A stretch of 64,000 bases of DNA from Cyanobacteriota bacterium (GTDB taxonomy: Bacteria; Cyanobacteriota; Cyanobacteriia; Cyanobacteriales; Nostocaceae): NCBI GenBank assembly GCA_046045965.1, contig JBJOKS010000006.1:112998-176997 (forward strand). Reading direction: 5' to 3'. The translations under genes were made by a program, and so were the position numbers. The notes beneath the pieces were generated by a model that worked only from the letters and a program-made list of their open reading frames with translations, did no database searches and was not told the origin of the DNA. Positions 1,048-46,378 of the stretch are shown in pieces (position 1 is the first letter of the stretch; every line of letters starts with the position of its first letter).

Positions 1048-1517
1048 TAATTTTTTTTAATCAGCGGTCAGCCATTTTACTATATCTGTACCTTGATCAG
1101 TAACAATTCTGCTGATGCCTTACCATCAGGAAATATATGCCAATATAACGAAATATAAGCTAATTAAGCGTTTGACGGTGATTGGGAACGATATTTTTAG
1201 GTAAAGCGAAGTAATCGCATCTGTTTACAAGCTTGCAAAGCGTTCCATCAATAGTTACACTTTTTAAAATATTCTCATTTTTGCTTGGCGATAGCCTACC
1301 TGCTCAAATAGCCACTTTCCCAAAAGTTCACAACTCAAAGGAAACCAGCGTATTAAAGCAGATAAGCATTGCTAAACCACAGGCTGATCTGTGGTAAAAC
1401 TCAAGACTGGCAATAACAAAAAACTCAGAGAGTTCTCCAAGTCACGGCTTCCGTTTCCTGAGAACCTCAGTAAGAAAATTGCTTTGTAAACAAACTCTTC
1501 AAGGAGGATCGTAGTCG

Positions 1518-3047
1518 ATGGGACTACCCTGGTACCGAGTACATACAGTTGTTCTGAATGATCCAGGTCGGCTGATTTCTGTACACCTCATGCACACCGC
1601 CCTAGTCGCTGGCTGGGCTGGTTCAATGGCACTGTACGAACTAGCAGTTTACGACCCCAGTGATCCAGTTCTCAACCCCATGTGGAGACAAGGGATGTTC
1701 GTTCTTCCCTTCATGTCACGTTTAGGCGTAACTGAATCCTGGGGCGGATGGAGTGTGACTGGTGGCGCAGCAGTAGATCCTGGCTTTTGGTCATTTGAAG
1801 GCGTTGCTGCTGCTCACATCGTTCTTTCCGGTTTGTTATTCCTAGCAGCCGTTTGGCACTGGGTTTACTGGGACTTAGAACTGTTCAGAGATCCCCGTAC
1901 AGGCGAACCTGCCTTAGACTTGCCAAAAATGTTTGGCATCCACCTGTTCTTATCTGGTTTACTTTGCTTCGGCTTCGGTGCTTTCCACCTCACTGGACTA
2001 TTTGGTCCTGGTATGTGGGTTTCCGATGCCTTTGGTGTCACTGGCAGCATTCAACCAGTCGCACCAGAATGGGGACCTGCCGGGTTTAACCCCTTTAACC
2101 CCGGTGGTATTGTGGCTCACCACATTGCAGCTGGTGTAGTTGGTATTATCGCTGGTTTATTCCACCTCACTGTTAGACCTCCCGAAAGGCTCTATAAAGC
2201 CCTACGGATGGGTAATATTGAAACCGTACTTTCCAGCAGTATCGCGGCAGTATTCTTTGCTGCTTTCGTAGTAGCTGGAACCATGTGGTACGGTAATGCT
2301 GCTACCCCCATTGAATTGTTTGGTCCAACCCGCTATCAGTGGGATCAAGGCTACTTCCGTCAAGAAATTGATCGCCGTGTGCAAACCAGTGTTGCTCAAG
2401 GTGCAAGTCTAACTGAAGCTTGGGCGCAAATTCCCGAAAAACTGGCTTTCTATGACTACGTAGGCAATAGCCCCGCTAAAGGTGGTTTATTCCGTACAGG
2501 TCCAATGGTTAAGGGTGATGGTATTGCCCAATCTTGGCAAGGCCACGCAGTATTCACAGATGCAGAAGGACGCGAGTTAACTGTACGTCGTCTGCCTAAC
2601 TTCTTTGAAACCTTCCCAGTGATTTTGACCGATAAAGATGGAGTTGTCCGCGCTGACATTCCTTTCCGTCGGGCTGAGTCTAAATACAGCTTTGAGCAAA
2701 CAGGCGTAACTGTTAGCTTCTACGGTGGTAATCTCAACGGCAAGACCTTTACAGATCCTGCTGATGTGAAGAAATACGCTCGTAAAGCTCAAGGTGGAGA
2801 AATCTTTGAATTTGACCGCGAAACTTTGAACTCTGATGGTGTATTCCGTACATCTCCCAGAGGTTGGTTTACCTTTGGTCACGCTGTATTTGCGCTGCTG
2901 TTTTTCTTCGGACATCTGTGGCATGGCTCTCGGACAATCTACCGAGACGTATTTGCTGGTGTGGAAGCGGATCTAGAAGAACAAGTAGAGTGGGGTCTGT
3001 TCCAGAAAGTGGGTGACAAAACCACTCGTACGCGGAAGGAAGCTTAA
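1518..3047 (+). CDS. psbB: Photosystem II CP47 chlorophyll-binding protein
   Basis: [20 protein letters not shown]-terminus, 509 aa, AGGAGG RBS upstream. Confidence 0.99.
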
Positions 3048-3138
3048 ACTACGATCAAGTATGGAGTTTTATTACTTCATACTTTTTCCCAGGTTTGGTA
3101 AACTAAGATTACTGGCCGGATAGGCAGGAACTCCTAAT

Positions 3139-3246
3139 ATGGAAAGCGTTGCATACATTTTAATTTTGACCTTGGCACTAGGTGTTCTCTTCTTTGCGAT
3201 CGCATTTCGCGAACCTCCCCGCTTTGAGAGAAAAGAGAAAGACTAA
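3139..3246 (+). CDS. psbT: Photosystem II reaction center protein T
   Basis: Own translation [46 protein letters not shown] motif, directly after psbB. Confidence 0.97.
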
Positions 3247-3609
3247 GCAGTTAAACAGTAAAAACTGGCATTTTTTCTCAGTATTCACCATTTAGCAATT
3301 TTTCAAGTCAGATTCTTCTATCCAGACTTGTAAAAAACCTCAAAATTCTATCCGTTGCCTCCTCTTTAGGTAGCAACGGATAATATTGTGAGTCTCTGTT
3401 GCTAAAATTATCAGGCTGCAAATGCCAACAAGTGAAAAATTTTTTGATATGTGATATAATATCCTATCTGGAAGATAATATGTGTGAACCTAGCTCTTCT
3501 GCGCTAGGATTGACAAAGATGTAAGTGTAGACTTATTGAAAAGCCACCGCATATACATCGTTAACTGTGACAAAAACTTGACGGAGACTAGAACCAGGAA
3601 CAAATCAGC

Positions 3610-4659
3610 ATGGTCAATCAGAATTTAACCGCTACAGAAATTGGATTTACTCACGAAGATTTCGCTGCTCTACTCGATAAATACGATTATCATTTTAGCC
3701 CTGGTGATGTTGTACCAGGTACAGTGTTTAGTATAGAGCCGCGCGGCGCTCTGATTGACATTGGTGCTAAAACAGCAGCATACATACCTATACAGGAAAT
3801 GTCTATTAACCGGGTCGATGCCCCGGAAGAAGTCTTACAATCAAACGAAACACGGGAATTTTTCATCCTCACTGATGAAAACGAAGATGGTCAGCTAACC
3901 CTGTCCATTCGTCGTATTGAATACATGAGGGCTTGGGAAAGAGTACGTCAATTACAGGCAGAAGATGCTACTGTCCGTTCTGGTGTATTTGCTACCAATC
4001 GTGGGGGCGCATTGGTAAGAATTGAGGGACTACGTGGCTTTATCCCCGGCTCCCACATTAGTACCCGCAAACCCAAAGAAGAATTGGTAGGGGAAGAATT
4101 GCCCTTAAAATTCCTAGAAGTAGACGAAGAACGCAACCGCTTAGTTCTTTCCCATCGTCGGGCGCTGGTTGAGCGGAAGATGAACCGGTTGGAAGTTGGC
4201 GAAGTGGTAATTGGTACTGTTCGCGGTATTAAACCCTACGGTGCATTCATTGATATCGGCGGTGTTAGTGGACTACTCCACATTTCTGAGATTTCCCATG
4301 AGCATATTGACACACCTCACAGCGTGTTCAATGTCAATGATGAAGTGAAAGTAATGATCATTGACTTGGATGCAGAAAGAGGTCGGATCTCGCTGTCTAC
4401 CAAGCAGTTGGAACCCGAACCCGGTGACATGATTAAGAACCGCGATTTGGTCTATGATAAGGCCGAAGAAATGGCAGCTAAGTATAGGGAACAAATGTTA
4501 GCTAAACAGCAAGGTATCACTGCTGCACCTGTGGAAGCGGTAGAAGCAGTGGAAACTGTAGAAGCTGTAGAAACTGCACCTGTGGAAGCTGTAGCTGAAG
4601 AAGAAATTCCACCAGCAACTGAAGCTGAAGAAGAGATCCCAGCAGCTGTTGAAGAGTAA
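3610..4659 (+). CDS. rps1: 30S ribosomal protein S1
   Basis: Three S1 domains, typical cyanobacterial Rps1a sequence, acidic low-complexity tail. Confidence 0.97.
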   Translation: MVNQNLTATEIGFTHEDFAALLDKYDYHFSPGDVVPGTVFSIEPRGALIDIGAKTAAYIPIQEMSINRVDAPEEVLQSNETREFFILTDENEDGQLTLSIRRIEYMRAWERVRQLQAEDATVRSGVFATNRGGALVRIEGLRGFIPGSHISTRKPKEELVGEELPLKFLEVDEERNRLVLSHRRALVERKMNRLEVGEVVIGTVRGIKPYGAFIDIGGVSGLLHISEISHEHIDTPHSVFNVNDEVKVMIIDLDAERGRISLSTKQLEPEPGDMIKNRDLVYDKAEEMAAKYREQMLAKQQGITAAPVEAVEAVETVEAVETAPVEAVAEEEIPPATEAEEEIPAAVEE

Positions 4660-4699
4660 TATACCCTTAGTTGTAATTATTTACAACTCTGTATTTGAT

Positions 4700-4724
4700 G
4701 AAGAGGGATTTTCCCTCTTTTTTT
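4700..4724 (+). terminator. Probable intrinsic terminator of rps1
   Basis: AAGAGGG-ATTTT-CCCTCTT hairpin followed by a T-run. Confidence 0.6.
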
Positions 4725-4757
4725 ATATTCAAAATCATATTAGTGGGGTGTAATATT

Positions 4758-5495
4758 TTGGCAACTATAAAATGTAGAAACATCACGTTTTCTCATATTC
4801 AAGCGATTTTATTTGATAAAAATGGGACATTAGAAGACTCAGAAGCTTATTTGCGATCGCTCGGACAAAAAGGAGCGCGGATGATAGACGCGCAAATTCC
4901 CGGTATTGGCGAACCTTTATTAATGGCTTTTGGTATAAATGGCGATCGCTTAGATCCGGCTGGTTTAATAGCCGTAGCTAGTCGCAAAGAAACAGAAGTA
5001 GCCGCAGCGGCCTATATAGCTGAAACAGGTAGAGGATGGTTTGAGTCCTTAAAAATTGCCCGTCAAGCCCTAGCAGAAGCTGAAAAATACGTGAATAAAA
5101 CCCCCTCACCTCTGTTTCCTGGTAGCTTAGAAGTTTTAAAATCTCTCTCAGCAGCAGGTCTAAAACTAGGTATCCTCTCAGCTGCAACAACTCAGGATGT
5201 GCAGAAATTTGTCATCACTCATCATTTAAGAGATTACCTACAATTAGAAATGGGAGTTGATGAAGGTCCGAGTAAACCAGATCCCATTTTATTTCTACAC
5301 GCTTGTCAAACTTTAGGTGTACAACCGGGAGCTACTTTGATGGTAGGCGATTCTGTTGGTGATATGCAAATGGCGAGAGATGGTAAAGCCGCAGGTTGTA
5401 TAGGTATTACTTGGATTGATAATTTAGGTAATGTTCAAGGTGCTGATGTCGTGATTAATAAACTTGAGGAAATTCAGATTTTAGAGGATGTCTGA
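4758..5495 (+). CDS. HAD-family hydrolase
   Basis: ILFDKNGTL motif I, SKPDP, MVGDS..D motif; TTG 4758 preferred as start because the longer ORF start overlaps the rps1 terminator. Confidence 0.85.
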   Translation: MATIKCRNITFSHIQAILFDKNGTLEDSEAYLRSLGQKGARMIDAQIPGIGEPLLMAFGINGDRLDPAGLIAVASRKETEVAAAAYIAETGRGWFESLKIARQALAEAEKYVNKTPSPLFPGSLEVLKSLSAAGLKLGILSAATTQDVQKFVITHHLRDYLQLEMGVDEGPSKPDPILFLHACQTLGVQPGATLMVGDSVGDMQMARDGKAAGCIGITWIDNLGNVQGADVVINKLEEIQILEDV

Positions 5496-5618
5496 GAAGT
5501 ATTTTTAAGAGTGATTTAGAGAGATCAATACAATATTTACAATACTTTTCTTCCTTGTCAACAAAGTACGAATTTCTGATACAATCAAAAATCCGACTCC
5601 TTTAACATAGATTGATGT

Positions 5619-7022
5619 ATGAGCAAGGGTACACTATTTGACAAAGTTTGGGACTTACACACCGTTGGTACACTGCCATCAGGATTAACACAACTATTTA
5701 TTGGACTACATCTTATTCATGAAGTTACCAGTCCCCAAGCCTTTGCTATGCTCAAGGAGCGGGATTTAAAAGTATTATTCCCAGAACGGACAATAGCCAC
5801 AGTTGATCATATCGTTCCCACAGAAAACCAAGCTCGTCCCTTTGTGGATAGCATGGCCGAAGAAATGATCCAGGCATTAGAAAAGAGTTGTCAAGAAAAT
5901 GACATAACTTTTTACAATATTGGTTCAGGAAATCAAGGTATAGTTCACGTTATTGCACCAGAACTGGGACTCACCCAACCAGGAATGACCATTGCTTGTG
6001 GAGATAGCCACACATCCAGTCATGGTGCATTTGGAGCGATCGCCTTTGGTATTGGTACAAGCCAAGTTAGAGACGTTCTCGCCTCCCAAACTCTATCATT
6101 ATCTAAACTCAAAGTCCGCAAAATCGAAGTTAACGGCAACTTAAAACCTGGAGTTTACGCCAAAGACGTAATTTTGCATATTATCCGTACATTAGGCGTA
6201 AAAGGTGGAGTAGGCTACGCTTATGAATTTGCAGGAACCACCTTTGCACAGATGAACATGGAAGAACGGATGACCGTTTGTAACATGGCCATAGAAGGTG
6301 GTGCAAGATGCGGTTACGTCAACCCCGACCAAATTACTTACGACTACCTAAAAAATAGAGACTTCGCCCCCAAAGGTGCAGACTGGGACAAAGCCCTTGC
6401 TTGGTGGGAATCTCTGCGGAGTGATGCCGAAGCCGAATATGATGATGTGGTAGTATTTAATGCCGAAGACATTCCCCCCACAGTCACATGGGGAATTACA
6501 CCAGGTCAAGGAATAGGTGTAGATGAAAAAGTCCCCACAGCCGGAGAACTGCTAGAAGAAGACCGCTTCATAGCCGAAGAAGCATATCGCTACATGGACT
6601 TATATCCAGGTCAACCCATCCAAGGGACAAAAATTGACGTTTGCTTTATCGGTAGCTGTACCAACGGACGCATCAGCGACCTGAGAGAAGCCGCCAAAAT
6701 AGCCAAAGGACGCAAAGTTGCAGAAGGTGTGAAAGCTTTCGTCGTTCCTGGTTCAGAAAGAGTCAAAAAAGAAGCCGAAGCCGAAGGACTAGATAAAATC
6801 TTCGTTGCAGCAGGTTTCGAGTGGAGAGAACCAGGGTGTTCCATGTGTTTAGCCATGAACCCCGACAAACTGCAAGGAAGACAAATTAGCGCGTCATCAT
6901 CTAACCGCAACTTTAAGGGAAGACAAGGTTCCGCTTCCGGTCGCACCTTACTCATGAGTCCCGCAATGGTAGCCACCGCAGCTATTAAAGGAGAAGTCGC
7001 TGACGTGCGTGAATTCTTCTAA
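5619..7022 (+). CDS. leuC: 3-isopropylmalate dehydratase large subunit
   Basis: [32 protein letters not shown] motifs. Confidence 0.98.
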
Positions 7023-7120
7023 TAACCCTGAATAACCCTTGTGGGGTGGGCATCTTGCCCGCCCATAACAAAAAAATCTCTCTTAAACTCTTTCCTTCGT
7101 GCCTTCGTGGTTCATTAATT

Positions 7121-7729
7121 ATGGTAAGTGAAGTAAAACAAATATCCAGTACCGCCGTTCCCCTCATCGGTAACGACATCGACACAGACAGAATTATACC
7201 CGCCCGCTATTTAAAAGCAGTCACCTTTGACGGCTTAGGAGAAGGTGTATTTATCGACGACAGAAAAGCCTTAAACGGTCAACATCCCTTTGACCTACCC
7301 CAATACCAAGGAGCGAAAATATTAATAGTTAACCGCAACTTTGGCTGTGGTTCATCAAGAGAACACGCACCCCAGGCCTTAGCCAAATGGGGAATTAAAG
7401 CGATAATTGGTGAAAGCTTCGCAGAAATATTCTTTGGTAACTGCGTCGCTATGGGGATACCTTGCGTAACAGCCGAACCTAGCATAGTTAAACAAATGCA
7501 AGAATTAGTCACCGCGAACCCTCAAGCAATCTTTATCATAGATGTGGAAAAATTGCAAGTACAGATTGGTGATTTTATTACCCCAGTGGTGATGGGAGAA
7601 GGAACAAGAACCGCTTTTGTTTCTGGGACTTGGGACGCTTGCGGACAGTTGGTAGCAAATGCAGAACAGGTAAAGGCGATCGCATCGAAATTACCTTATA
7701 TTGGTTGGGGTAAATTAGCCGCAAGTTAG
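7121..7729 (+). CDS. leuD: 3-isopropylmalate dehydratase small subunit
   Basis: [22 protein letters not shown]; start set at ATG 7121 because the upstream extension is repeat DNA. Confidence 0.96.
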
Positions 7730-7752
7730 TTTGATCCCCCCAACCCCCCTTA

Positions 7753-7926
7753 GAGGTTGTTTGAAAAGTCTAATGTATTACCCCACCTAGCGACTAGAAG
7801 TCGTGGCTAAACAGACAAAACCCACCTACATGGGTTTCAAAACCTTGATTTTCCATTAGTCCACGCAGGTGGACTTGGTTTGTGTAGTAGCGAATTATAT
7901 TCGCCCAAAACTTTTAAAACATCCTC
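7753..7926. mobile_element. 174-bp MITE with 17-bp imperfect TIRs and TTA target duplication
   Basis: Left end GAGGTTGTTTGAAAAGT, right end ACTTTTAAAACATCCTC (15/17 complementary); TTA at 7750-7752 and 7927-7929; no ORF. Confidence 0.8.
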
Positions 7927-7994
7927 TTAAAAAGGGGGCTAAATTACTTAAAATCGCCTAAAATTGTTTCTACAATTAGGGAATTAATTATGAG

Positions 7995-8453
7995 ATGAAT
8001 GCAATTAATTATTGGTTAATGAAATCAGAACCAGCAGTTTATAGTATTACTGACTTACAACAGCAAAGTGAGACAATTTGGGACGGTGTGCGTAATTATC
8101 AAGCACGTAATTTCTTGAGACAAATGCAAATAGGAGATTTAGCTTTTTTCTATCATTCTAATGCTGAACCTCCTGGTGTTTTTGGGTTAATGCGAATAAT
8201 TGAAACAGGAATTCCTGACCCTACACAATTTGACGTAAATAGTAAATATTATGATCCTAAATCTACTCCAGAATCTCCCCGCTGGCAAACAGTAAAAGTA
8301 GAATTTGTAGAGGTATTTTCTCAACCTATTTCCTTATCTACACTTAAATAAAAATTTAGTGAAGATGAATTATTAGTGGTGAAAAAAGGAAATCGCTTAT
8401 CAGTAATACCTATTTTGGCAGCAGTAGCTAAAAAGATTTTGGACATGAATTGA
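7995..8453 (+). pseudogene. EVE-domain protein with an internal stop codon
   Basis: YWLMKSEP, WDGVRNYQARN, FFYHS motifs; TAA at 8349-8351, then the same frame continues KFSEDELLVVKKGNRLSVIPI... to TGA 8453. Confidence 0.8.
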
Positions 8454-8805
8454 GTGATTATGTACCGAGTATATTCTTGACTCATCTTCTATGAAATTAG
8501 AAATCATTTGAAAAGTAGTATTTTTTGTCAAGATAGATTAGACTAGAAATAGAACTAAATTGTCATGGTTTGGAATTCACAACTTTTATTTAAAAAAGAA
8601 ACTCAACTAACAACTTACCTGACAATAGATTACATTCAAATATAGCCAAAAGTTTCCAGCGATAAATAAAGAGCAAGCATTCATGGTGTTGTAGTAAATA
8701 TAACCAGAAAATGCCAGTTTGGAAACATTGTCAGAACTGAAGAAAATTTTTCTGGCAAGCTTTTGAGTTAATCTAGTTTTTTCCCTATTCAAAGAGAATT
8801 TTGTT

Positions 8806-9039
8806 ATGCTTAACGGACCATTGCATGAACAACCTCGTAACCAACGAGCCACTGTAATTCGTACAAGTAATGAATTTGTACTGCTAGAATGGCTAAAGTC
8901 CACTGGACGTTTAATAGCGCGTGAACCTGTAGAGTCTGAGCATCTCAAGGAAGTGGAAGAAATTTCAGAGATTATAGACCTCGATGATCTCACCTATGAT
9001 AATGATGATGATGACACAGATTTAGATTTAGAAGATTAG
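8806..9039 (+). CDS. Small cyanobacterial protein, DUF3134-like
   Basis: PLHEQPRNQRA..LLEWLKSTGRLIARE motif with an acidic tail. Confidence 0.75.
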   Translation: MLNGPLHEQPRNQRATVIRTSNEFVLLEWLKSTGRLIAREPVESEHLKEVEEISEIIDLDDLTYDNDDDDTDLDLED

Positions 9040-9131: not shown

Positions 9132-10544
9132 CTAATCTTTAATCAACTTCTCCAACGCTACCTGCAAATCTTTTGTTAATTCACTCACACCCTTTCTAGA
9201 AGCCTGTTTATTTCCTTGACAATTCTCCCATCTTTCACTCACAGAGATCGGTTCACCAACAATAATCATCGACTGTTTTAAACCTAAACGCGGCCTTCCT
9301 GGTAAAGTAGAATCTTGAATGCGAGACAGCATATCAAACATTAATAAAGTCGTTTCTGCAAATCTATCAGCCGTGGGTTTTTCTTGAATATAATTAGCTG
9401 TAACTGCTACAAAACTTTCTGCTATTCTCATGTGTTGCATTTTCAAATCTGCTTCCTCCGCTACCCAGTCAGCCAGACCACGTTTAAAAGGTGGTAAACT
9501 ATGAATATGCTCTATATCATCTCGATAAATATAATTCCAACCAGCTTCTTCTAACCTGCGACATCTATCAATAAAAGTTCCTTGGGCTGAAACATTAAAA
9601 TATTCTTCAGCAACCTGTAACGCTGTATCCATCAAATTTCTTAACCTAGCAATTAAAACCTCGTTGGGGTTAGCTGTTTCTTCAGCAGTAATGACTGGTA
9701 AATCTCGATGATAGAAACGACGATAAAAGACTTCCATTTCTGTGACTAAATATTCTGCTAAATGGAAAATACGCTGATATAAAATTTCTGCTCTATTCTT
9801 GCCAGTTTGATTAATTTGTGTAACTTTTAAACCGCTATCAGCTTCTAATTTAGATAACAGCCAATCTATTTTTTCCCAAGGTGGGTTAACATAACTATAT
9901 TTAATAGCAATTGGGATAATAAAAACAGTTTCTTCACGGTTAGCTTTTTGCAAATCTTCCACACACCAAAAACCCAACTGTGCTACACCTGGTTCTAAAG
10001 GACTGACAATACCACTATGACCATTTGTACCACCTTCAGGAGCGATCGCAATCGGCATTTTCGCATTTACAAATAAATTTCGTGCCATTTGAATTGCATT
10101 TCTGTCTACTTTTCTTCCCCTGCGAATAGGTACACCCCCAGCACGCGAGAATAACCATCCTAACCATTTTCCTGCCCATAAAGTCATCCCCCTTTCATAC
10201 ATAAAATGACTATGAACTGGGTATTTTAAATCAATTCCTTTTTCCCTTGCTACTTTAGGAACCATGCGAGAAAGTAAATATAACATTGACAGGGGATCTT
10301 CAACTTCTGGATGACGAAAAGCAATTAAAAACCGAATTTTTCCTGCTTGAAATTCATGATATAATTTAGCTAAAACTTCAGTATTTTTAGCTTCAATTTT
10401 CACAATACCAGCAGGTAGCCAAGGTCTGGTTCTCACTCGTAAAATAAAAGGGAGAAACCAAGACATGATCTTAAGTACCCAAGGTTGAAAATTTGGGGGA
10501 ATAAATTTTAATGGTGGTTGGGTGGAATGAATAGACTTAGGCAA
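9132..10544 (-). CDS. Phospholipid/glycerol acyltransferase (PlsC-like)
   Basis: FRHPEVED (HxxxxD-like) and IAPEGG motifs. Confidence 0.85.
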   Translation of the reverse strand: MPKSIHSTQPPLKFIPPNFQPWVLKIMSWFLPFILRVRTRPWLPAGIVKIEAKNTEVLAKLYHEFQAGKIRFLIAFRHPEVEDPLSMLYLLSRMVPKVAREKGIDLKYPVHSHFMYERGMTLWAGKWLGWLFSRAGGVPIRRGRKVDRNAIQMARNLFVNAKMPIAIAPEGGTNGHSGIVSPLEPGVAQLGFWCVEDLQKANREETVFIIPIAIKYSYVNPPWEKIDWLLSKLEADSGLKVTQINQTGKNRAEILYQRIFHLAEYLVTEMEVFYRRFYHRDLPVITAEETANPNEVLIARLRNLMDTALQVAEEYFNVSAQGTFIDRCRRLEEAGWNYIYRDDIEHIHSLPPFKRGLADWVAEEADLKMQHMRIAESFVAVTANYIQEKPTADRFAETTLLMFDMLSRIQDSTLPGRPRLGLKQSMIIVGEPISVSERWENCQGNKQASRKGVSELTKDLQVALEKLIKD

Positions 10545-20155: not shown

Positions 20156-21238
20156 ATGACATACAAAACCGCAAAATCAGCGAAACTCCTGCCTGTAAAA
20201 ACAGCATCAACCATACTGTTAGCCATCAGTGTCAGTGCAAATACGGTAGTTCCTGTCTTTGCAGAAACTACAGCCCAAAATAAACAACTAATTAGTCAAA
20301 ACACCAAGAAAGTAGAAATCACCTTGGTATCTTACGCAGTTACAAAAGCTGCTTACAGTAAAATCATTCCTCAGTTTGTAGCCAAATGGAAACGAGAAAA
20401 AGGTCAGGATGTGATTATTCGGGAAAGTTATGGTGGTTCAGGTTCTCAAACCCGTGCTGTCATTGATGGCTTACAAGCAGATGTGGTAGCCTTAGCCTTG
20501 GGTTTAGATACCAAAAAAATCGAACAAGCAGGTTTAATTAACCCTGGTTGGGAAAAAGAAGCGCCCAACAACTCCATCATTACCCGTTCAGTGGTAGCAT
20601 TAGAAACGCGCCCAGGTAATCCTAAAGGCATCAAAACCTGGAATGATTTAATCAAACCGGGAGTAAAAATAGTCACGGCCAACCCCAAGACCTCTGGTGG
20701 TGCAAGGTGGAATTTTTTAGCTTTGTGGGGAGCCGTTGCTAAAAATGGTGGTAATGAAAACCAAGCCTTGAATTTTGTCCAACAAGTATTTAGAAATGTA
20801 GTAGTTTTACCCAAAGATGCCAGAGAATCTAGTGATGCCTTTTACAAGAAAAACCAAGGAGATGTGCTACTTAACTACGAAAACGAAGTAATTTTAGCAG
20901 CACAACAGGGTAAAACAGATACTACTTACGTAGTTCCTTCCACGAATATTTCTATTGAAGGACCCGTGGCTGTGGTTGATAAAAATGTAGATAAACGTGG
21001 TACTCGTGCAGTATCAGAAGCATTAGTTAAGTTTTTATTTACACCAGAAGCACAGCGGGAATTTGCCAAAGTAGGTTTTCGACCAGTGAACCCGACAGTA
21101 GCCAAAGAAGTACAGAGTAAATTTTCCAAAATTGCCAAACTTTATACAGTGGGTAGTCTAGGAGGTTGGGATAGTGTGCAGAAGAAGTTTTTTGATGACG
21201 GTGCTATTTTTGACAAAATCCAATCTAGCAAGCGGTAG
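20156..21238 (+). CDS. sbp: Second sulfate-binding protein (Sec signal, no lipobox)
   Basis: ESYGGSGSQTRAVIDGL, NPKTSGGARWNFL; start set at ATG 20156. Confidence 0.9.
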   Translation: MTYKTAKSAKLLPVKTASTILLAISVSANTVVPVFAETTAQNKQLISQNTKKVEITLVSYAVTKAAYSKIIPQFVAKWKREKGQDVIIRESYGGSGSQTRAVIDGLQADVVALALGLDTKKIEQAGLINPGWEKEAPNNSIITRSVVALETRPGNPKGIKTWNDLIKPGVKIVTANPKTSGGARWNFLALWGAVAKNGGNENQALNFVQQVFRNVVVLPKDARESSDAFYKKNQGDVLLNYENEVILAAQQGKTDTTYVVPSTNISIEGPVAVVDKNVDKRGTRAVSEALVKFLFTPEAQREFAKVGFRPVNPTVAKEVQSKFSKIAKLYTVGSLGGWDSVQKKFFDDGAIFDKIQSSKR

Positions 21239-34702: not shown

Positions 34703-35596
34703 CTATTCTACATTTACCCAAAAGTCTGCGGTTTTGATTTTCCCGTTGCGGTTAAATTGCATCCACATTTTATAAGTTCCTGACTGGGGTAATTTTGTAT
34801 GAAATTCGATTTTCCCATCCGTTGTATTTTTGAGTGCATGAGCATGGATATAATCGGCTTTTGTGAGAGGAGATGAGCTTTTAATAATTACTAAATGCCC
34901 TTTTTCTCCTAAGTAGGATTGTAGGTCTTTAATGGGTTGGTTTTTGTTGTCTTTTAAATCAAATGTAAAAGTTATATCTTCACCTGCTTTGATTTTTTCT
35001 TTAGATGGGTTAAAACTGACTTTAGTATCTGATATGGTTTTAGTTTTTTCATATTTAGATAAACTTTTGGGGAGAGGAACTGAACCAGGAATAGAGATTT
35101 TTGTTAATGATAAAGTTTCTGCTTGTCCCGCTGGTTTATAATCACTAAAAAGTGTATAATCTCCTGGTTGGGGAAAGTTCGCACTCACTTCAAATTTACC
35201 ATTTTCTTTATAGTCTGGGTGAAGATGGTCGAAATGTTCCAAGTCATCACTAACAACTATTAAATGCATGAGTTTTTCTTGGAAGATGTCAAATTTATTG
35301 ACTGGTTTTCCAGCAGTTTCTTGAAGATCAATAACTAACTTAATCGGTTGATTAGCAGATGGGTTTTTAGGTGCTGTTAATTTGGCTTGGGTGGCTATTT
35401 TTGGTTGTTCCTCATGGTGTTTGTGTTCCATTGAGTGTCCTTTATGCTCACTCATAGATTTTGTTTCTTTTTTTTCAGGTTGAGGACTATTTTCATTATG
35501 AGAAATTTGTGCTTCACCTGATTTAATTGTGGATGAACAACTAGGAGCAACTAATAATGTTGTAGCCGCGAAAATACTTACTAAAATACGCTTCAT
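34703..35596 (-). CDS. Secreted His/Met-rich probable metal-binding protein
   Basis: Signal peptide with Cys, MSEHKGHSMEHKHHEE linker, EKLMHLIVVSDDL.HF.H.HP and YLGEKGHLVII..YIHAH motifs. Confidence 0.7.
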   Translation of the reverse strand: MKRILVSIFAATTLLVAPSCSSTIKSGEAQISHNENSPQPEKKETKSMSEHKGHSMEHKHHEEQPKIATQAKLTAPKNPSANQPIKLVIDLQETAGKPVNKFDIFQEKLMHLIVVSDDLEHFDHLHPDYKENGKFEVSANFPQPGDYTLFSDYKPAGQAETLSLTKISIPGSVPLPKSLSKYEKTKTISDTKVSFNPSKEKIKAGEDITFTFDLKDNKNQPIKDLQSYLGEKGHLVIIKSSSPLTKADYIHAHALKNTTDGKIEFHTKLPQSGTYKMWMQFNRNGKIKTADFWVNVE

Positions 35597-35859: not shown

Positions 35860-36344
35860 GTACAGCACGGCGTAAATAAACCAACCATTCTCAATTGCTA
35901 TTTATGAAGCAATTCACTCACAGGAACATCATCACCTGACTATATTTGCATAGGAAAATGAAATTAGAATGAAGAAATTGAAGTTAAAAAATGTGATTTC
36001 AATATTAGGTAATAATTACGGTGTGTTTCAGGTTTATGAAGTCCACCTCTCGCAAACCTTCTTCTTCGTAAGGGTAAAGTTCGCGACAGCGCGGGTGGGG
36101 TATTTTTGTACCTCACAAAGTTGAACTCTTCTGTATAACTTCTCTAAAGCTTCTGCTGAATTTTGTATTAATTCGCTATAAAAAGAGCCAAAATAATAAA
36201 TTAGGTTACAAACAAACCTTCTGTCAACTTAGTGATAATATTCTTTTAAATGCTCAAAATATGGCTTTTAAATCTATCTTTTGATAGTAGATTTATCCCC
36301 AAATTAGGCTTGTTGATTATATACCAAATATGTAAATTTTTGGA

Positions 36345-36449
36345 CACTTCCTATAGGAAGATGACTATAAATAGAAGTAGCTTTAAATTAATCTTGGTGT
36401 GTCGAATAACTGCTTTCTATGGAGGTTTAGCTGCGCTAAACCTTTTTTT
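36345..36449 (+). ncRNA. Candidate sRNA unit A (box 36345-36357, -10 36384-36389, RNA ~36396-36449)
   Basis: CACTTCCTATAGG-N26-TAAATT; terminator AGGTTTAGC-TGC-GCTAAACCT followed by a T-run. Confidence 0.6.
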
Positions 36450-36491
36450 ATGATTTGTCGAATCTGGCAGTAATATTATTTTTTTAAATCA

Positions 36492-36593
36492 TACTTCCTA
36501 TAGACTGATTAATTTAGGAAATACAGTATCTAAATTATGAAAATATAATCTACTTCTACTCAAGGCTTGGTGCAACACCAAGTCTTTATTTTT
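36492..36593 (+). ncRNA. Candidate sRNA unit B (box 36492-36504, -10 36531-36536, RNA ~36543-36593)
   Basis: TACTTCCTATAGA-N26-TAAATT; hairpin AGGCTTGGTG-CAA-CACCAAGTCT then TTATTTTT. Confidence 0.55.
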
Positions 36594-36705
36594 AAATAGC
36601 ATTTTCTTAATTGAAATACTGCACATTCTCAGTCATGGTAGGATTGATAATTGCCATTCTAGGGTAAAATCAGGTCAATCAATAACAGGTTTTATCATAT
36701 TTGTA

Positions 36706-36810
36706 CACATCCGCTAGGTAGATGATAGGAAATATAAGTAAGCTTACATTAAGTAGATATGGTAAACACTTGGTATATATGTGGGCTTGGTTCATCGCCA
36801 AGCCTTTTTT
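36706..36810 (+). ncRNA. Candidate sRNA unit C (box 36706-36718, -10 36745-36750, RNA ~36757-36810)
   Basis: CACATCCGCTAGG-N26-TACATT; hairpin GGCTTGG-N7-CCAAGCC then T6. Confidence 0.6.
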
Positions 36811-36928
36811 GTAGGAAAAAAGCAGTTGAGATTCTTAACTTCTCTAAGCATTCAGCAATATTATTTTTCACGTCTTAATTGTGCGGTATGTTAATTATTA
36901 CTCAGATACAAGCTAAAAATGTAATTTA

Positions 36929-37035
36929 ATTATCCTTTAGGTAGTAGAAATATTGATTTATAGAAAGTATGATTCAGTCTATTAATGCCTGAAAAATGTG
37001 TATTCACCCTGGAATAATATCTAGGGTCTTTTTTT
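36929..37035 (+). ncRNA. Candidate sRNA unit D (box 36929-36941, -10 36968-36973, RNA ~36981-37035); most divergent unit
   Basis: ATTATCCTTTAGG-N26-TATGAT; hairpin ACCCTGGA-ATAATA-TCTAGGGT then CT7. Confidence 0.5.
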
Positions 37036-37124
37036 ATGCAGACTGTTTAACTATATGACTTCTTCAAGAAGTCGTACCTCTCTACTCAGAGTCGTATTTC
37101 ATAGCAGGTTTTATCAATTTTGTA

Positions 37125-37228
37125 CACACCTGAGAGAGAGATGAACTAGAAGAAAACAGAGTTTAAATTAACTATATATGGTAAACACCTGGTATATACA
37201 GAGGCTTGGCTTGAGTCCAAGCCTTTTT
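37125..37228 (+). ncRNA. Candidate sRNA unit E (box 37125-37137, -10 37164-37169, RNA ~37176-37228)
   Basis: CACACCTGAGAGA-N26-TAAATT; hairpin AGGCTTGG-N7-CCAAGCCT then T-run; close paralog of unit C. Confidence 0.6.
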
Positions 37229-37328
37229 CATTCTTTAGATAGATACTTATTGGCTTTTATACTGTTATCTAAGAGCAAATTTAAGAGTTTGACCAAGTAA
37301 TGCTTTATCAGGTTTTGGGGTATTTGGA

Positions 37329-37436
37329 CACATCCTCTAGGAAGATGATCTGTAAGCTGACTAGAACTAAATTAATTTAGTACGTTGTTAAGCACAGCAA
37401 TTATAGAGGTTTGGTTAACAGCCAAACCTTTTTTTT
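37329..37436 (+). ncRNA. Candidate sRNA unit F (box 37329-37341, -10 37368-37373, RNA ~37380-37436)
   Basis: CACATCCTCTAGG-N26-TAAATT; hairpin AGGTTTGGTT-AAC-AGCCAAACCT then T-run. Confidence 0.6.
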
Positions 37437-37660
37437 AATGTGTAAATATCACCCTCAATAAGTAATATTTCCAACTCAGTCATAAAGCAGATGTTTTTTG
37501 AAATTTACTATACTATTCATAAAAAATTATTGATAGCGCAGCTTGATGTTAACCATAAAACAAGAACCCCGACTTCTTTCTTTTCATGGTCTATACTGGT
37601 ACAATGCAAATGTCACTCAAGCAGCGTTTTGTCTGCCGATATATCTCCAGAACATAAACT

Positions 37661-38698
37661 ATGAGTAATCACATCCCCGACTATGATCCTAGCGGTATAG
37701 CAGAAATTAATGGCAATCTCTTGGGTTTACCTTATGATTATGAGACTGCTAATTTAATTGTCTTTGCTGTTCCTTGGGAGGTTACTGTTTCCTATGGTGC
37801 AGGAACAGCTAATGCACCACAGCGAATTTTAGATGCTTCCTATCAAATAGATTTATTTGATTTTGATAATCCTGATGGTTGGAAACAGGGAATTTATTTA
37901 GTAGAAATTTCTCAAGATATTTTAGATAAAAATAATTATTATCGTCAACAAGCCGCTAAAATAATCGCCAGACAATCTGAAGGTAAAGAAATCACAGACG
38001 CACCAGATTTAACACCTGTACTCACAGAAATTAATCAAGCAGGTGAACAGGTAAATCAATGGTTATTTAGCCAATGTCAGCAAGCAATGAATTTAGGTAA
38101 AAAAGTGGCTGTGATTGGTGGTGATCATAGTTCACCTTTGGGTTATTTCCAAGCTTTAGCAAATCAATATTCTGATTTTGGGATTTTACATATTGATGCA
38201 CACGCAGATTTAAGAGACGCTTACGAAGGTTTTGAATTTTCCCATGCGTCAATTATGTTTAATGCACTGAAAATTCCGCAAATTTCTAAGTTAGTGCAGG
38301 TAGGTTTGCGGGATATTTGTATTGATGAAGTGGAAATAATCAACGGTTCAAATAATCGAGTTGTTGCTTATTATGATTCAGCGATCAAACAACAACAATA
38401 TGCGGGTAAAACTTGGATTGATTTATGTCAGGAAATAGTAGGGAATTTACCTGAGAATGTCCATATTAGTTTTGATGTTGATGGTTTAGATCCTAAACTT
38501 TGTCCTAATACGGGAACTCCTGTTCCGGGAGGATTGGAATTAGAACAGGTTTATTGTTTATTTAGGGAAGTTGTGAAAAATGGGAGAAAGATTATTGGGT
38601 TTGATGTCAATGAAGTTGGTGATGCAGAATGGGATGGAAATGTGGGTGCGAGGATAGTTTATAAGTTGGCGAATTTGTTGGATTTATCGCAGAAATAA
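37661..38698 (+). CDS. Agmatinase/ureohydrolase family protein
   Basis: GGDHS, HIDAHAD, SFDVDGLDP, TGTPVPGG. Confidence 0.9.
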   Translation: MSNHIPDYDPSGIAEINGNLLGLPYDYETANLIVFAVPWEVTVSYGAGTANAPQRILDASYQIDLFDFDNPDGWKQGIYLVEISQDILDKNNYYRQQAAKIIARQSEGKEITDAPDLTPVLTEINQAGEQVNQWLFSQCQQAMNLGKKVAVIGGDHSSPLGYFQALANQYSDFGILHIDAHADLRDAYEGFEFSHASIMFNALKIPQISKLVQVGLRDICIDEVEIINGSNNRVVAYYDSAIKQQQYAGKTWIDLCQEIVGNLPENVHISFDVDGLDPKLCPNTGTPVPGGLELEQVYCLFREVVKNGRKIIGFDVNEVGDAEWDGNVGARIVYKLANLLDLSQK

Positions 38699-39608: not shown

Positions 39609-42600
39609 ATGACAAATGAAGAATTACTAAAAATAATTCAAGAAGCTGCTAATAATAAAGTTGAAAGATTGAATCTTTCTTACCAAAAATTAGATTTTTT
39701 ACCAGCAGAAATTGGACAACTTGTTAACTTGACAGAGCTTGATATTAGTGGCAACCAACTGAGCAGTTTACCAGCAGAAATTGGACAACTTGTTAACTTG
39801 ACAGAGCTTGATATTAGTGGTAATAAATTGAGCAGATTGCCATCAGAAATTGGAAAACTTCACAAACTAATAAAGCTAAACATTAGCGGAGATATATTTT
39901 TTAGTAACAACATATTAAAAAGTTTACCAGCAGAAATTGGACAACTTGTTAACTTGACAGAGCTTGATATTAGTGGTAATAAATTGAGCAGCTTACCAGT
40001 AGAAATTGGAAAACTTGTTAACTTAACTGAGCTTAATCTCAGTGGCAACCAATTAAAAAGCTTGCCATCAGAAATTGGACAACTTCACAAATTGAACAGA
40101 CTTAACCTTGGTGGATATGGATTTTTAATTGGCAACCAATTACAACGTTTACCAGCAGAAATTGGACAACTTGCTAACTTAACTGAGCTTGATATTAGTG
40201 GTAATAAATTGAGTAATTTACCATCAGAAATTATTCAACTTTCTCATTTGACTATACTTAATCTTAGTGATAATCAATTAAGCAGTTTACCACTAGAAAT
40301 CATTCAACTTTCTGAGTTAAATTGTCTTAGTCTAAGTCATAACCAATTTAGCAGTTTGCCAGCAGAGATTGGACAACTTACTAACCTAAGTGAGCTTGAT
40401 ATTAGTAACAATCAATTAACCAGTTTGCCAGCAGAGATTGGACAACTTACTAACCTAAGCGAGCTTGATATTAGTAACAATCAATTAACCAGTTTGCCAG
40501 CAGAGATTGGACAACTTACTAACCTAAGCGAGCTTGATATTAGTAACAATCAATTAACCAGTCTGCCAGCAGAGATTGGACAACTTACTAACTTGACTAG
40601 GCTTAACCTTAGTGGATATGATGTATTAGAAAGCAATGCAGTAGCTAGTTTACCATCAGAAATTATACAACTGGCTAACTTAATTGAGCTTAATATGAGT
40701 GGTAATAAATTAATTAATTTACCACCGGAAATTATAAAAATGTCTAGTTTGACTAGACTGAATATTAGTGACAACAGACTGAACAGCTTACCAGCAGAAA
40801 TCGGACAACTTACAAACTTAATGGAGCTTGATATTAGTGCTAATCAACTGACTAGATTACCAGCAGAAATTGGAAAAATATATAAATTAAAATCTTTGTT
40901 AATAAGTAATAATCAAATAGTTGATTTACCTCCAGAATTAGGAAATATAAAATTGTCACGGCTGAATTATGGTGGTAATCCGTTAGTATCGGTGCCACCA
41001 GAAATTCGCAAAAAAGGTCATAGAGCTATTATCAATTTTTACAAGCAACAGCAAGAACAGGAAACTGATAAAATTTATGAAGCTAAATTACTGATTATAG
41101 GTGAAGGTGGTGCTGGTAAAACTACATTATCTAGTAAAATACAGAACGAAAATTATCAATTACAAGATGAAGATTCTACAGAAGGTATTGATGTTATTCA
41201 ATGGAAATTTAAAATTGATAATGAAAAGGAATTTAAAGTTAATATTTGGGATTTTGGTGGACAAGAAATTTATCATACTACACATCAATTTTTTCTGACT
41301 AAACGCTCTCTTTATATCCTAGTTGCTGATACTCGCAAAGAAGATACAGATTTCTATTATTGGCTGAATGTTGTAGAACTATTAAGTGATAATAGTCCTT
41401 TGCTAGTTGTCAAGAATGAAAAACAAGAGCGTAAACGAGAAATTAATGAAAAACAGTTAAGAGGTGAATTTACAAATCTTAAAGAAACTTTAGCCACGAA
41501 TCTAGCGAATAATCGAGGTTTAACAGAAATTATCACACATATTAAACACCACATTCAAAACTTACCCCATGTAGGAACGGAACTACCAAGAAATTGGATT
41601 AAAGTGCGAGAGGCTTTAGAAGAAGATCCGCGTGACTATATCAGTTTGGAAGAATACTTTAAAATTTGTCAAGATAATGGCTTTACCACACAAGAAGATA
41701 AACTATTTCTCAGTAGTTATCTGCATGATTTAGGTGTCTGCTTGCACTTCCAAGAAGATGAGCTATTAAGAAAAACAGTTATTCTTAAACCTACCTGGGG
41801 TACAGATGCAGTTTATAAAGTATTAGATAACTCAGAAGTTACTGAAAATCTAGGTCAATTTAGTGGTGAGGATTTAGTTCACATTTGGCAAGAAGAGAAA
41901 TATGCCAATATGCGGCCAGAACTTTTACGGTTGATGATGAACTTTAAATTATGTTACGAAATCCCTAGTTGTCGTGGTAAATATATTGCGCCACAATTAC
42001 TAAGTCCTAATCAACCAGAATATGACTGGGATGAAAGTGATAATTTACTATTACGTTATGAATATGAATTCATGCCTAAAGGTATGCTTACTCGTTTTAT
42101 TGTGGAGATGCACCCTTGGATAGAAGGACAAAATTGTGTTTGGAAAACAGGTGTTGTTTTAAATAAAGATCAAGCTAAAGCTGAGGTGGTTGAATATTAT
42201 AGATATCATAAAGGAGAAATGAGGATTCGAGTTGCCGGCAAACGCAAGCGAGATTTGCTAGTCACTGTAATGTATGAACTCGAAAAAATTCATTCATCTT
42301 ATGAACGTCTGAAAGATAAAATTAAAACTCTTGTACCTTGTAATTGTAGCAGTTGCAAAGGTAATCAGTCACCACATTTTTACCCATTAAAGATACTTTA
42401 TAAATTTTTGGATGACCACAGAGATATCCAATGTCAAAATAGTTACGAGATGGTTAATGTGCATGGTTTAATTGATGATGTCAATATAAAGCAAAGCCAT
42501 TTTAGACTATCTGATGTTATAACTGAAGATGAACCTAAAGTTTATACTCTTATGCCTGATAGCAAGTACAGTATTCAAGCAGAAATAGTTCAGATTACTG

Positions 42601-42947
42601 AGCAAAATCATGGTGAAGTCATCGGTAAAAAATATGCCAATGATCCTCAGTTCAAAGAAGCATTGGCTGAAATTATTCAAATACTCAATAACCTAAAATC
42701 ACAGAATCCAAATGCTACTGAAGCACAAGCTGAAGATATCATCGAAGCAGAATTTATAGCAATTCAAACTAATCAGCCCAATAAATTGCAGTTGTTAAGA
42801 AGACAGCTATTGAACCATGAACGCTGGTTCAATGGTGGTAAATCAGCTTTAAGTGAAGTAGCAAAACATTATGTAGATAGCAATGTTTTTTATAAAGCAG
42901 GATTAGCTTTCCTGGACGGTTTTAGTGCTGATGAGGAGGATATATAA
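39609..42947 (+). CDS. LRR-Roc-COR (ROCO family) GTPase
   Basis: About 19 LRRs (LPAEIGQLxNLxELDISxNxL), P-loop GEGGAGKTT, WDFGGQE, COR-like region, CxCxxC motif. Confidence 0.92.
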   Translation: MTNEELLKIIQEAANNKVERLNLSYQKLDFLPAEIGQLVNLTELDISGNQLSSLPAEIGQLVNLTELDISGNKLSRLPSEIGKLHKLIKLNISGDIFFSNNILKSLPAEIGQLVNLTELDISGNKLSSLPVEIGKLVNLTELNLSGNQLKSLPSEIGQLHKLNRLNLGGYGFLIGNQLQRLPAEIGQLANLTELDISGNKLSNLPSEIIQLSHLTILNLSDNQLSSLPLEIIQLSELNCLSLSHNQFSSLPAEIGQLTNLSELDISNNQLTSLPAEIGQLTNLSELDISNNQLTSLPAEIGQLTNLSELDISNNQLTSLPAEIGQLTNLTRLNLSGYDVLESNAVASLPSEIIQLANLIELNMSGNKLINLPPEIIKMSSLTRLNISDNRLNSLPAEIGQLTNLMELDISANQLTRLPAEIGKIYKLKSLLISNNQIVDLPPELGNIKLSRLNYGGNPLVSVPPEIRKKGHRAIINFYKQQQEQETDKIYEAKLLIIGEGGAGKTTLSSKIQNENYQLQDEDSTEGIDVIQWKFKIDNEKEFKVNIWDFGGQEIYHTTHQFFLTKRSLYILVADTRKEDTDFYYWLNVVELLSDNSPLLVVKNEKQERKREINEKQLRGEFTNLKETLATNLANNRGLTEIITHIKHHIQNLPHVGTELPRNWIKVREALEEDPRDYISLEEYFKICQDNGFTTQEDKLFLSSYLHDLGVCLHFQEDELLRKTVILKPTWGTDAVYKVLDNSEVTENLGQFSGEDLVHIWQEEKYANMRPELLRLMMNFKLCYEIPSCRGKYIAPQLLSPNQPEYDWDESDNLLLRYEYEFMPKGMLTRFIVEMHPWIEGQNCVWKTGVVLNKDQAKAEVVEYYRYHKGEMRIRVAGKRKRDLLVTVMYELEKIHSSYERLKDKIKTLVPCNCSSCKGNQSPHFYPLKILYKFLDDHRDIQCQNSYEMVNVHGLIDDVNIKQSHFRLSDVITEDEPKVYTLMPDSKYSIQAEIVQITEQNHGEVIGKKYANDPQFKEALAEIIQILNNLKSQNPNATEAQAEDIIEAEFIAIQTNQPNKLQLLRRQLLNHERWFNGGKSALSEVAKHYVDSNVFYKAGLAFLDGFSADEEDI
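40352..40592 (+). repeat. 69-bp tandem repeat, ~3.5 nearly identical copies encoding LRRs
   Basis: Unit starts at 40352, 40421, 40490 and 40559; copies differ at about one base. Confidence 0.9.
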
Positions 42948-46133: not shown

Positions 46134-46378
46134 TTTCTGACAATGAATAATATTTGATAGTAAGCAATACCCATCCTAATTATCTCACAAATCAAATATA
46201 ACTCTTCTCTCTGCGTCCTCTGCGTCTCTGCGGTTCGTTAATAAAAAAGGCTTGGTTTTCTATACCAAACCTTGTTTTACAGAAGTGAAAGACTCTATTG
46301 AATTTAACCACTTATGAACTTGATAATTTATCTATCTTCAGAGTTAACTTATGTTTTTCATCCCCTAAATATCCTCAT

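Follow-up and report, generated by a model that had tools for sequence, protein, structure and literature searches.

A conserved array of six small RNA units with type-specific 5′ seeds in cyanobacteria and the complementarity of one unit to an integrative element family

Results

Layout of the array

The locus lies at 36345..37436 on the plus strand of the window (the whole 64-kb stretch of DNA analysed), between a gene for a YtkA-like protein and a gene of the arginase/agmatinase family, and consists of six units, each with a box, a 26-bp spacer, a hexamer, a seed, a hairpin and a T-run (Table 1). The boxes, the 26-bp spacing, the -10 hexamers, the hairpins and the T-runs were all found in the window sequence where the initial annotation had placed them. 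A loose pattern built from the six units recovered exactly those six in 36250-37500, had no match in 300 dinucleotide shuffles and gave no further match in the rest of the genome; this test is partly circular because the pattern was fitted to these units. Units C and E have closely similar seed cores that differ by one base (CACUUGG in C, CACCUGG in E).

Small ORFs overlap the array at 36250-36453, and the conservation of the array tracks seeds, not codons. The window also encodes, at 39609-42947 on the plus strand, a 1112-aa leucine-rich-repeat protein with a GTPase-like region that we take to be of the Roco type.

Table 1. Coordinates of the array units, their flanking genes and the complementary regions in the two element copies. 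Positions refer to the window unless a contig of this genome (G000) is named.
Feature	Position	Strand	Remarks
YtkA-like protein gene, flank	34703..35596	-	context only
Unit A promoter	36340..36389	+	box 36340-36365, -10 TAAATT 36384-36389
sRNA A, ~54 nt	36396..36449	+	invariant 5′ segment GGUGUGUCGAAUAACUGCUUUC, then terminator
Unit B	36492..36593	+	degenerate box, -10 36531-36536, sRNA ~36543-36593, UCUACUUCUAC core
Unit C promoter	36701..36750	+	box, -10 TACATT 36745-36750
sRNA C, ~54 nt	36757..36810	+	5′ segment AUAUGGUAAACACUUGGUAU, complementary to element start-codon region
Unit D	36929..37035	+	box start 36929, variant promoter without GATG, -10 TATGAT 36968-36973
sRNA D	~36981-37035	+	UAAUGCCUGAAAAA core, hairpin unlike other units
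Unit E	37120..37228	+	box, -10 37164-37169, sRNA ~37176-37228
Unit F	37324..37436	+	box, -10 37368-37373, sRNA 37380-37436
Arginase/agmatinase-family gene, flank	37661..38698	+	context only
C-complementary start region	G000:C58 ~5660-5690	-	element copy
C-complementary start region	G000:C93 ~3890-3920	+	element copy

Conservation and seed types

The proposed architecture was kept in relatives: array DNA matched 19 of 36 same-family genomes, 17 of them with several units, and in other families a single 28-nt match was obtained (1 of 24 genomes). All six units are genuine; among the related genera sampled, about half have kept them. The C/E seed pattern occurred in 156 of 301 family genomes, and the matches listed were mostly sRNA genes.

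The segment downstream of the hexamer, previously described simply as AT-rich, proved to be no filler; it is the most conserved part of each unit and is referred to here as the seed. For units typed by seed motif, within-type identity was 0.88-1.0 in seeds, 0.72-0.87 in boxes, 0.46-0.61 in promoter spacers and 0.33-0.50 in linkers, with seed values of 0.98 for A (37 copies), 0.88 for B (12), 0.99 for E (43) and 1.0 for F (43). When units were picked by promoter and terminator alone, 196 of 205 carried one of nine seeds, the loci themselves having been located via seeds. The unit order A-B-C/Cv-D-E-F-G-H was fixed across arrays, apart from losses and a few rearranged arrays. Each predicted RNA type has its own almost invariant 5′ segment of about 20 nt, a feature that is new here. 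All seeds carry AU, GU or, in F, AC near the 5′ end, the register for covering a start codon.

Array flanks differed between genomes, with no conserved neighbouring gene. Because the seeds are invariant across genera and the flanks are ordinary genes, the array has neither the variable acquired spacers nor the adjacent effector of a CRISPR or guide array.

RNA structure

The six units fold as 51-57-nt RNAs ending in a terminator. Across 36 units, the eight pairs of the terminator stem were paired in 99.3% of cells, and four pairs (25 cells) had changed on both sides, a level reached in 0 of 500 shuffles. The primary sequence of the stem (AGGYUUGG...CCAARCCU) was also conserved across types. 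The earlier suggestion of separately transcribed RNAs of ~50-57 nt with a common promoter is supported, expression of these particular copies being predicted. One RNA run gave four contigs, two of which crossed promoters.

Two further hairpins were observed. At 46240-46340 of the window (minus strand), a hairpin of the AGGTTTGG...CCAAGCCT type is accompanied by a weak box-like sequence whose register is off by two bases, and is either an orphan unit or merely the terminator of the upstream gene. At G000:C8 ~132240-132350 (minus strand), a box-like CTCCTTAAGGAGGATG with correct spacing, the family hairpin and a new 5′ segment mark a possible orphan family member with a low matrix score.

Relationship to RF02596

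Novelty of the family, which the initial annotation had put forward, was not supported by comparison with Rfam: unit F scored 40.8 bits against RF02596 (cyano_het_sRNA), whose gathering score is 35.7. Units C (25.2), A (23.4) and E (21.7) scored below this cut-off, and B and D gave no plus-strand match at E<=10. The best match in the genome, and the true orthologue, was a single gene at G000:C33:16312-16367 (80.1 bits), downstream of an ispH-like gene and with an array-type promoter. Since the RF02596 5′ sequence GGAUGUUGUUAUGCACUGGAUU and the single-gene locus are held by this gene and by no window unit, the units are paralogues of RF02596, not orthologues.

In the accessible parts of the 2016 catalogue, the RF02596 consensus equals Nostoc PCC 7120 sRNA 4547237r of Table S3, an RNA that was seen in Northern blots and by primer extension, that accumulates as cultures grow denser and for which 12 of 27 heterocystous genomes contain a homologue (PMC4734099). 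A ~50-nt RNA and a rise with density or long N starvation are reported there for 4547237r only (PMC4734099). Unit F and a seventh type, G, had already been catalogued singly: the accessible portion of the same table holds 5335648r, the orthologue of F, and 5335498r, that of G, 150 nt apart (Brenes-Alvarez et al. 2016, PMC4734099). The probe used for 5335648r in 2016 has a primer that falls within the adjacent unit G. Among the matches listed from this table, none lay at 5334, 5336 or 5337 thousand and none had the A motif, and the available text describes no array, promoter motif, seeds or targets (PMC4734099). Outside Ionescu 2010, Mitschke 2011 with its transcription start site (TSS) tables and a 2019 co-expression study, which may mention single units or the motif, the literature held no account of the array, of its seeds and promoter or of any target.

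Start-site reads from PCC 7120, another strain than that of the window, numbered 121, 9, 12 and 5 for the F orthologue and 8, 4, 9 and 11 for G (wild type with NH4, wild type without N, hetR with NH4 and hetR without N, respectively), which indicates no nitrogen induction of these two orthologues in that strain.

Promoter box

A matrix trained on 186 promoters of other genera, which makes the test non-circular, gave as its top five genome sites F, A (rank 2), the C33 RF02596 gene, C (rank 4) and E, with scores of 48.6-35.0 bits; the next site scored 19.2. Unit B reached only 13.5 (ninth in the list) and unit D -5.5, which was not recognised, and these low scores indicate that the B and D promoters are degenerate or different. 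The 13-bp box of the initial annotation is present, but the conserved element is longer, about TTTGNACACATCCTNTAGGAAGATGA, and extends into the -35 position. It forms a near-palindrome, CATC-N9-GATG, with CCTNTAGG inside and its centre near -42, which we take, by analogy with NtcA, to be a class II activator position. No protein-gene regulon for the box emerged from the genome promoter scan, and the box was not found in the element loci described below (best score 12.0). The box is essentially private to the array sRNAs and RF02596, which is likewise new here.

An integrative element family

The element is ~15 kb long, with the gene order IS110-family gene, XRE regulator, rep-like gene (K0), an optional small ORF, K3, a convergent tyrosine recombinase and further ORFs, conserved in about 30 loci. 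Copies in this genome lie at G000:C58 ~200-9011 (L027) and G000:C93 1-5755 (L026), and relatives were collected as loci L171-L210. The recombinase and repressor genes expected of a prophage are present (tyrosine recombinase PF00589; IS110-family NF051857, 529.6 bits; XRE HTH), the recombinase consisting of the catalytic domain only. The rep-like gene was found in 93 of 301 family genomes. The K16 fold is a jelly-roll sandwich that aligned with the STIV turret protein A223 (Z 8.3, rmsd 2.9, 83 aligned) and tied with non-viral sandwiches, and K8 gave no usable match in fold and atlas searches (best fold Z 5.5). In K3, an arm-DNA-binding or DUF6788-like domain is hinted at (E 1e-3; atlas score 0.81) so weakly that a role of K3 in excision is a guess. 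The rep-like protein had no match in viral contigs, nor K3 in a phage collection. The family is widespread, integrative, prophage-like and without prior characterisation.

Complementarity between seed C and the element

The C seed had its best genomic complement immediately ahead of an ATG in both element copies of this genome (C58 and C93), where 16 nt match perfectly, and the best genomic RF02596 site likewise lay inside this element. In the element copies that carry the site, the C match was perfect over 16–18 nt. Among 44,209 candidate starts, the element sites of the two copies were the best start-anchored partners of C, at -25.6 kcal against -19.9 for the next candidate, and the best values of eight shuffled control seeds ranged from -16.6 to -22.1. 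In 36 element-bearing loci, C reached -28.5, with 13 loci at or below -21, and 0 of 100 shuffled seeds reached either. Between the rep-like gene and K3, the values for 84 copies were bimodal, 14 lying at or below -21.2 and the next at -14.8. The 14 best start-anchored C duplexes in 44 loci (0.70 Mb) were all the element site (13 distinct, as L131 equals L180, and L180 had entered the locus set because of its site). An 18-mer made of the C/E complement plus ATG had 13 exact matches in 185,579 genomes; the four in Nostocales were one sRNA gene and three element copies, which repeat L180, L384 and L177.

The site always adjoins a start codon on the coding strand, and the ORF that bears it is the first gene of a short unit (the 58-aa ORF or K3) facing the tyrosine recombinase. 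It was kept although neighbouring bases are unalignable and K3 diverges by up to ~0.9 substitutions per site. The predicted hybrid of C with its target reached -52.7, against -16.3 plus -21.8 for the separate strands, the C seed being partly self-folded in the prediction. The site motif holds a TTTACCA direct repeat with an 11-bp period and lies among heptamer repeats in some copies. In 4 of 32 copies, the rep-like gene has a second, RF02596-like site in its leader (-32.4, -21.1, -20.9 and -19.0). No element sites were found for A, B, D or F in the 36 element-bearing loci, and the G signal there was cross-pairing at the C site. Computed start-codon pairing exists for C, E and RF02596, and searches gave no accepted target for A, B, D, F or G.

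Host repertoire and fate of the site

The site was present in 10 of 20 hosts with C and in 1 of 50 without C. Because the hosts are related, the Fisher values (4e-6 and 2e-4) overstate the association of site and host, and the host counts are to be read as patterns, not as independent trials. The counts leave out G003, an 80% complete genome with a perfect site in which no C gene was found, and place G033, with one exact C 15-mer, among the hosts without C. Sites occurred in at least two well-supported clades of K0 (quick tree) but in one clade of K3 (FastTree), where 13 of 15 copies paired with a family member; this points to a site that arose once, travels with K3 and is conserved. The C and RF02596 sites of the K3 tree all go back to a single clade, and so to one origin that was retained.

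Within the site-holding K3 clade, 10 of 11 copies from C hosts had retained the site, as against 1 of 9 from non-C hosts, the nine being four from the tree (one with the site) and five assigned later by best match (none with the site). In two C-lacking hosts (G211 and G074), the same position pairs with RF02596 (-27.4 and -22.5); the two have upstream sequence in common and may represent a single switch. In an E-only host (G108), the site carries the E-specific base (-20.8 and -18.5), L367 repeating L374. The E-type sites and the second RF02596-type sites are bulged and moderate (-18 to -21). The site had decayed in the non-C hosts G125 and G249 and in one G153 copy, and two later-found non-C copies were simply decayed. 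G153, a host without C, keeps a perfect site with which E would pair at -24.3, and G002, a C host within the K3 clade, has lost the site. In ten C hosts the elements belong to other clades and have no site.

Searches for other targets

None of the seeds had a host target that was broadly conserved. The top D match in this genome, at the start of a fatty-acid desaturase gene (-20.0), recurred at -13 to -19 in 24 of 30 genomes and was rejected, as the pairing was also seen in genomes without an array match and showed no compensatory change. Pairing of F with the leader of tftA, also rejected, reached -25.1 here and, in five relatives, -18.2 once and -12.5 to -16.5 four times; an 11-nt perfect F-seed complement in the leader of this hormogonium gene (L404, on G000:C3) recurs in one relative (L408) and is absent in four. 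A pairs with codons 2-8 of a TPR-protein gene at -25.6 here and at -21.2, -18.8, -18.1, -13.7 and -13.5 in five relatives; this candidate did not pass, and is the best remaining lead among the host candidates. For the trypsin/TPR gene paired with E, only one of five relatives had a close homologue, and pairing of C/E with a gene on C41 was not conserved.

Exact A complements in 60 genomes gave 57 matches, mostly the sRNA gene; the four inspected were two sRNA genes and two unrelated sequences. An F/RF02596 complement followed by a start was found in 2 of 80 genomes, against 3 for the reversed control, and was discarded. One exact 16-nt RF02596 complement ends at the ATG of a 204-aa ORF (L331:1495-1515, G202), a single case at chance level; this ORF, which we take to be lysozyme-like, had no Pfam or NCBIfam match. 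In G076, an E-complementary start region (L187 ~9380-9400, -22.7) precedes a single-domain response regulator in a chemotaxis-like cluster.

In viral contigs, the C/E complement had 68 matches, none similar to element proteins, and the A, F and G complements had 5, 7 and 20 (32 in all), each unrelated. One phage family (L031 and about 25 similar viral loci) has a C complement in the first codons of an ORF, presumably a ribonucleotide reductase gene; this was treated as chance. Metagenome scans gave 0 matches and 2 unrelated matches.

Discussion

Proposed function

At the level of sequence, the array, its seeds and their order, the exclusivity of the promoter, the complementarity to the element and the host association are established. 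Our preferred reading, which we hold with moderate confidence, is that the array encodes a battery of sibling sRNAs that are regulated together and block translation, and that a mobile element uses one of them as a control input. We infer pairing in vivo, repression, a role of K3 and a regulator as follows. The battery would have arisen by duplication of one promoter-RNA-terminator cassette, that of RF02596. One activator probably binds the box near -42 and would switch on A, C, E, F and RF02596 together, and B and D may be controlled differently from A, C, E and F. Each RNA would expose its own 5′ seed of ~20 nt, in which (A/G)U pairs with the start codon and is followed by the complement of the bases just upstream. 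By analogy with the action of NsiR1 on alr3234, such pairing would block ribosome loading. One element lineage has most likely plugged into host RNA C, with the 58-aa ORF or K3 silenced when the array is on, and silencing via C may tie excision or induction of the element to the state of the host.

A wider form of this proposal is tentative. The element family would subscribe to a fixed host library of anti-start-codon sRNAs, with a perfect C site before an excision-type gene that is re-tuned to E or RF02596 in C-lacking hosts, and the ordered array would broadcast cell state to host genes and mobile elements alike.

The fact that the only strong conserved targets found lie in a mobile element could also suggest a hard-wired defence library, in which the siblings were selected for silencing different mobile elements or phages, one each, and the copies that persist are the silenced ones. 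The second RF02596-like site in the rep-like leader (4 of 32 copies) and the failure of any host target to pass agree with this. However, an attacked target should escape where C is present and the site is kept there instead, the seeds are fixed across genera, the A, F and G complements in viral contigs were only unrelated ones (5, 7 and 20), and 70 of 84 element copies have no C site, so that we regard a defence library as unlikely. A perfect site kept where the RNA exists is the opposite of escape, and co-option is therefore favoured over defence or sponging; survivorship of silenced copies may be an alternative to co-option.

It is quite unlikely that the array is an ordinary host sRNA battery and that the motif in the element, conserved as a signal for translation or DNA binding, matches C by chance or through old capture. 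The single origin of the site, the TTTACCA repeat with its 11-bp period and heptamer-repeat surroundings in some copies, and the existence of modest host candidates are compatible with this explanation, and chance matches are made more frequent by the resemblance of all seed complements to start regions. Against it stand the perfect match of 16-18 nt to the invariant seed portion, which none of 100 shuffles attained, the dependence on host C within a clade and the shifts toward E or RF02596 where C is missing.

Near-perfect complementarity, kept on the element side where the RNA exists, would favour tight binding and hence an element transcript that titrates or destroys host C (or RF02596 or E) and relieves repression of host genes. 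Such a sponge is very unlikely, as in every case the site lies right next to a start codon, on the coding strand, a position needed for translational control but not for a sponge. Action mainly through a protein, with the AGGYUUGG...CCAARCCU stem as a handle or a guide-loaded effector, would account for a stem sequence conserved across types beyond the needs of termination and for the layout of a 5′ guide with a constant 3′ hairpin, but is highly improbable, given that there is no conserved neighbouring gene, that common descent explains the stem and that, in the accessible part of the source, NsiR1 is active in E. coli reporters, where it has no cyanobacterial partner (PMC9045159).

With the co-regulated battery as the favoured reading, an orphan Rfam family becomes a series of at least nine sequence-specific regulators that stand in a set order, have a promoter of their own and are conserved in many nitrogen-fixing cyanobacteria, and RF02596-type RNAs gain a first concrete predicted target. 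If the link to the element is true, a mobile element conserves, and possibly retargets, a host-sRNA site across genera. A common element family, with its rep-like gene in 93 of 301 genomes and no match in the viral and phage collections searched, has come to light as well.

Comparison with known systems

Sets of sibling sRNAs under one activator, such as Qrr1-5, the csRNAs and LhrC, comprise several paralogues with one regulator box and largely share seeds and targets. The window seeds, in contrast, are type-specific and individually frozen. The array units resemble RF02596/4547237r in promoter box, -10 hexamer, size and terminator stem, a cassette of common descent, but carry other seeds.

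The initial annotation had compared the layout to the NsiR1 array while noting a different sequence and promoter, and this held: the window units scored at most 24.1 bits (unit D) against RF02399, whose gathering score is 39. NsiR1 has its own locus in this genome (G000:C98:4441-4729; L005; 67 bits), an array with DIF1 promoters cut by the contig end, and DIF1 (TCCGGA), present at these copies, is absent from the six window promoters. As far as the available part of the source describes it, the NsiR1 array is also tandem and individually promoted, its ~60-nt RNA blocks translation over the start codon, and NsiR1.4 covers the start codon of alr3234 (PMC9045159). The NsiR1 5′ end AUGGUAGAUGCAC resembles the C/E AUGGUAAACAC; NsiR1 is HetR-dependent, and its copies are mostly identical, unlike the window units with one seed per unit. 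The NsiR1 5′ end also pairs over the start codon of an ORF at G000:C32 ~21000-21030 (plus strand; -33.8 kcal, next -25.8), which is a candidate new NsiR1 target.

Links between host sRNAs and temperate elements have precedents. In the accessible sections of these sources, the Vibrio cholerae host sRNA CisR represses an mRNA of the CTX phage and ties the output of phage to cell density (PMC13250501), and host sRNAs act on mRNAs of phage VP882 (review PMC12197685). The present case, with its predicted pairing, would share with them a host sRNA, the mRNA of an integrated or temperate element and a coupling to host state. The CisR and VP882 sRNAs, however, are single and Hfq-dependent, and CisR is derived from a 3′UTR, whereas here the RNA is a member of an array and its near-perfect site is conserved across genera, apparently following the sibling repertoire of the host.
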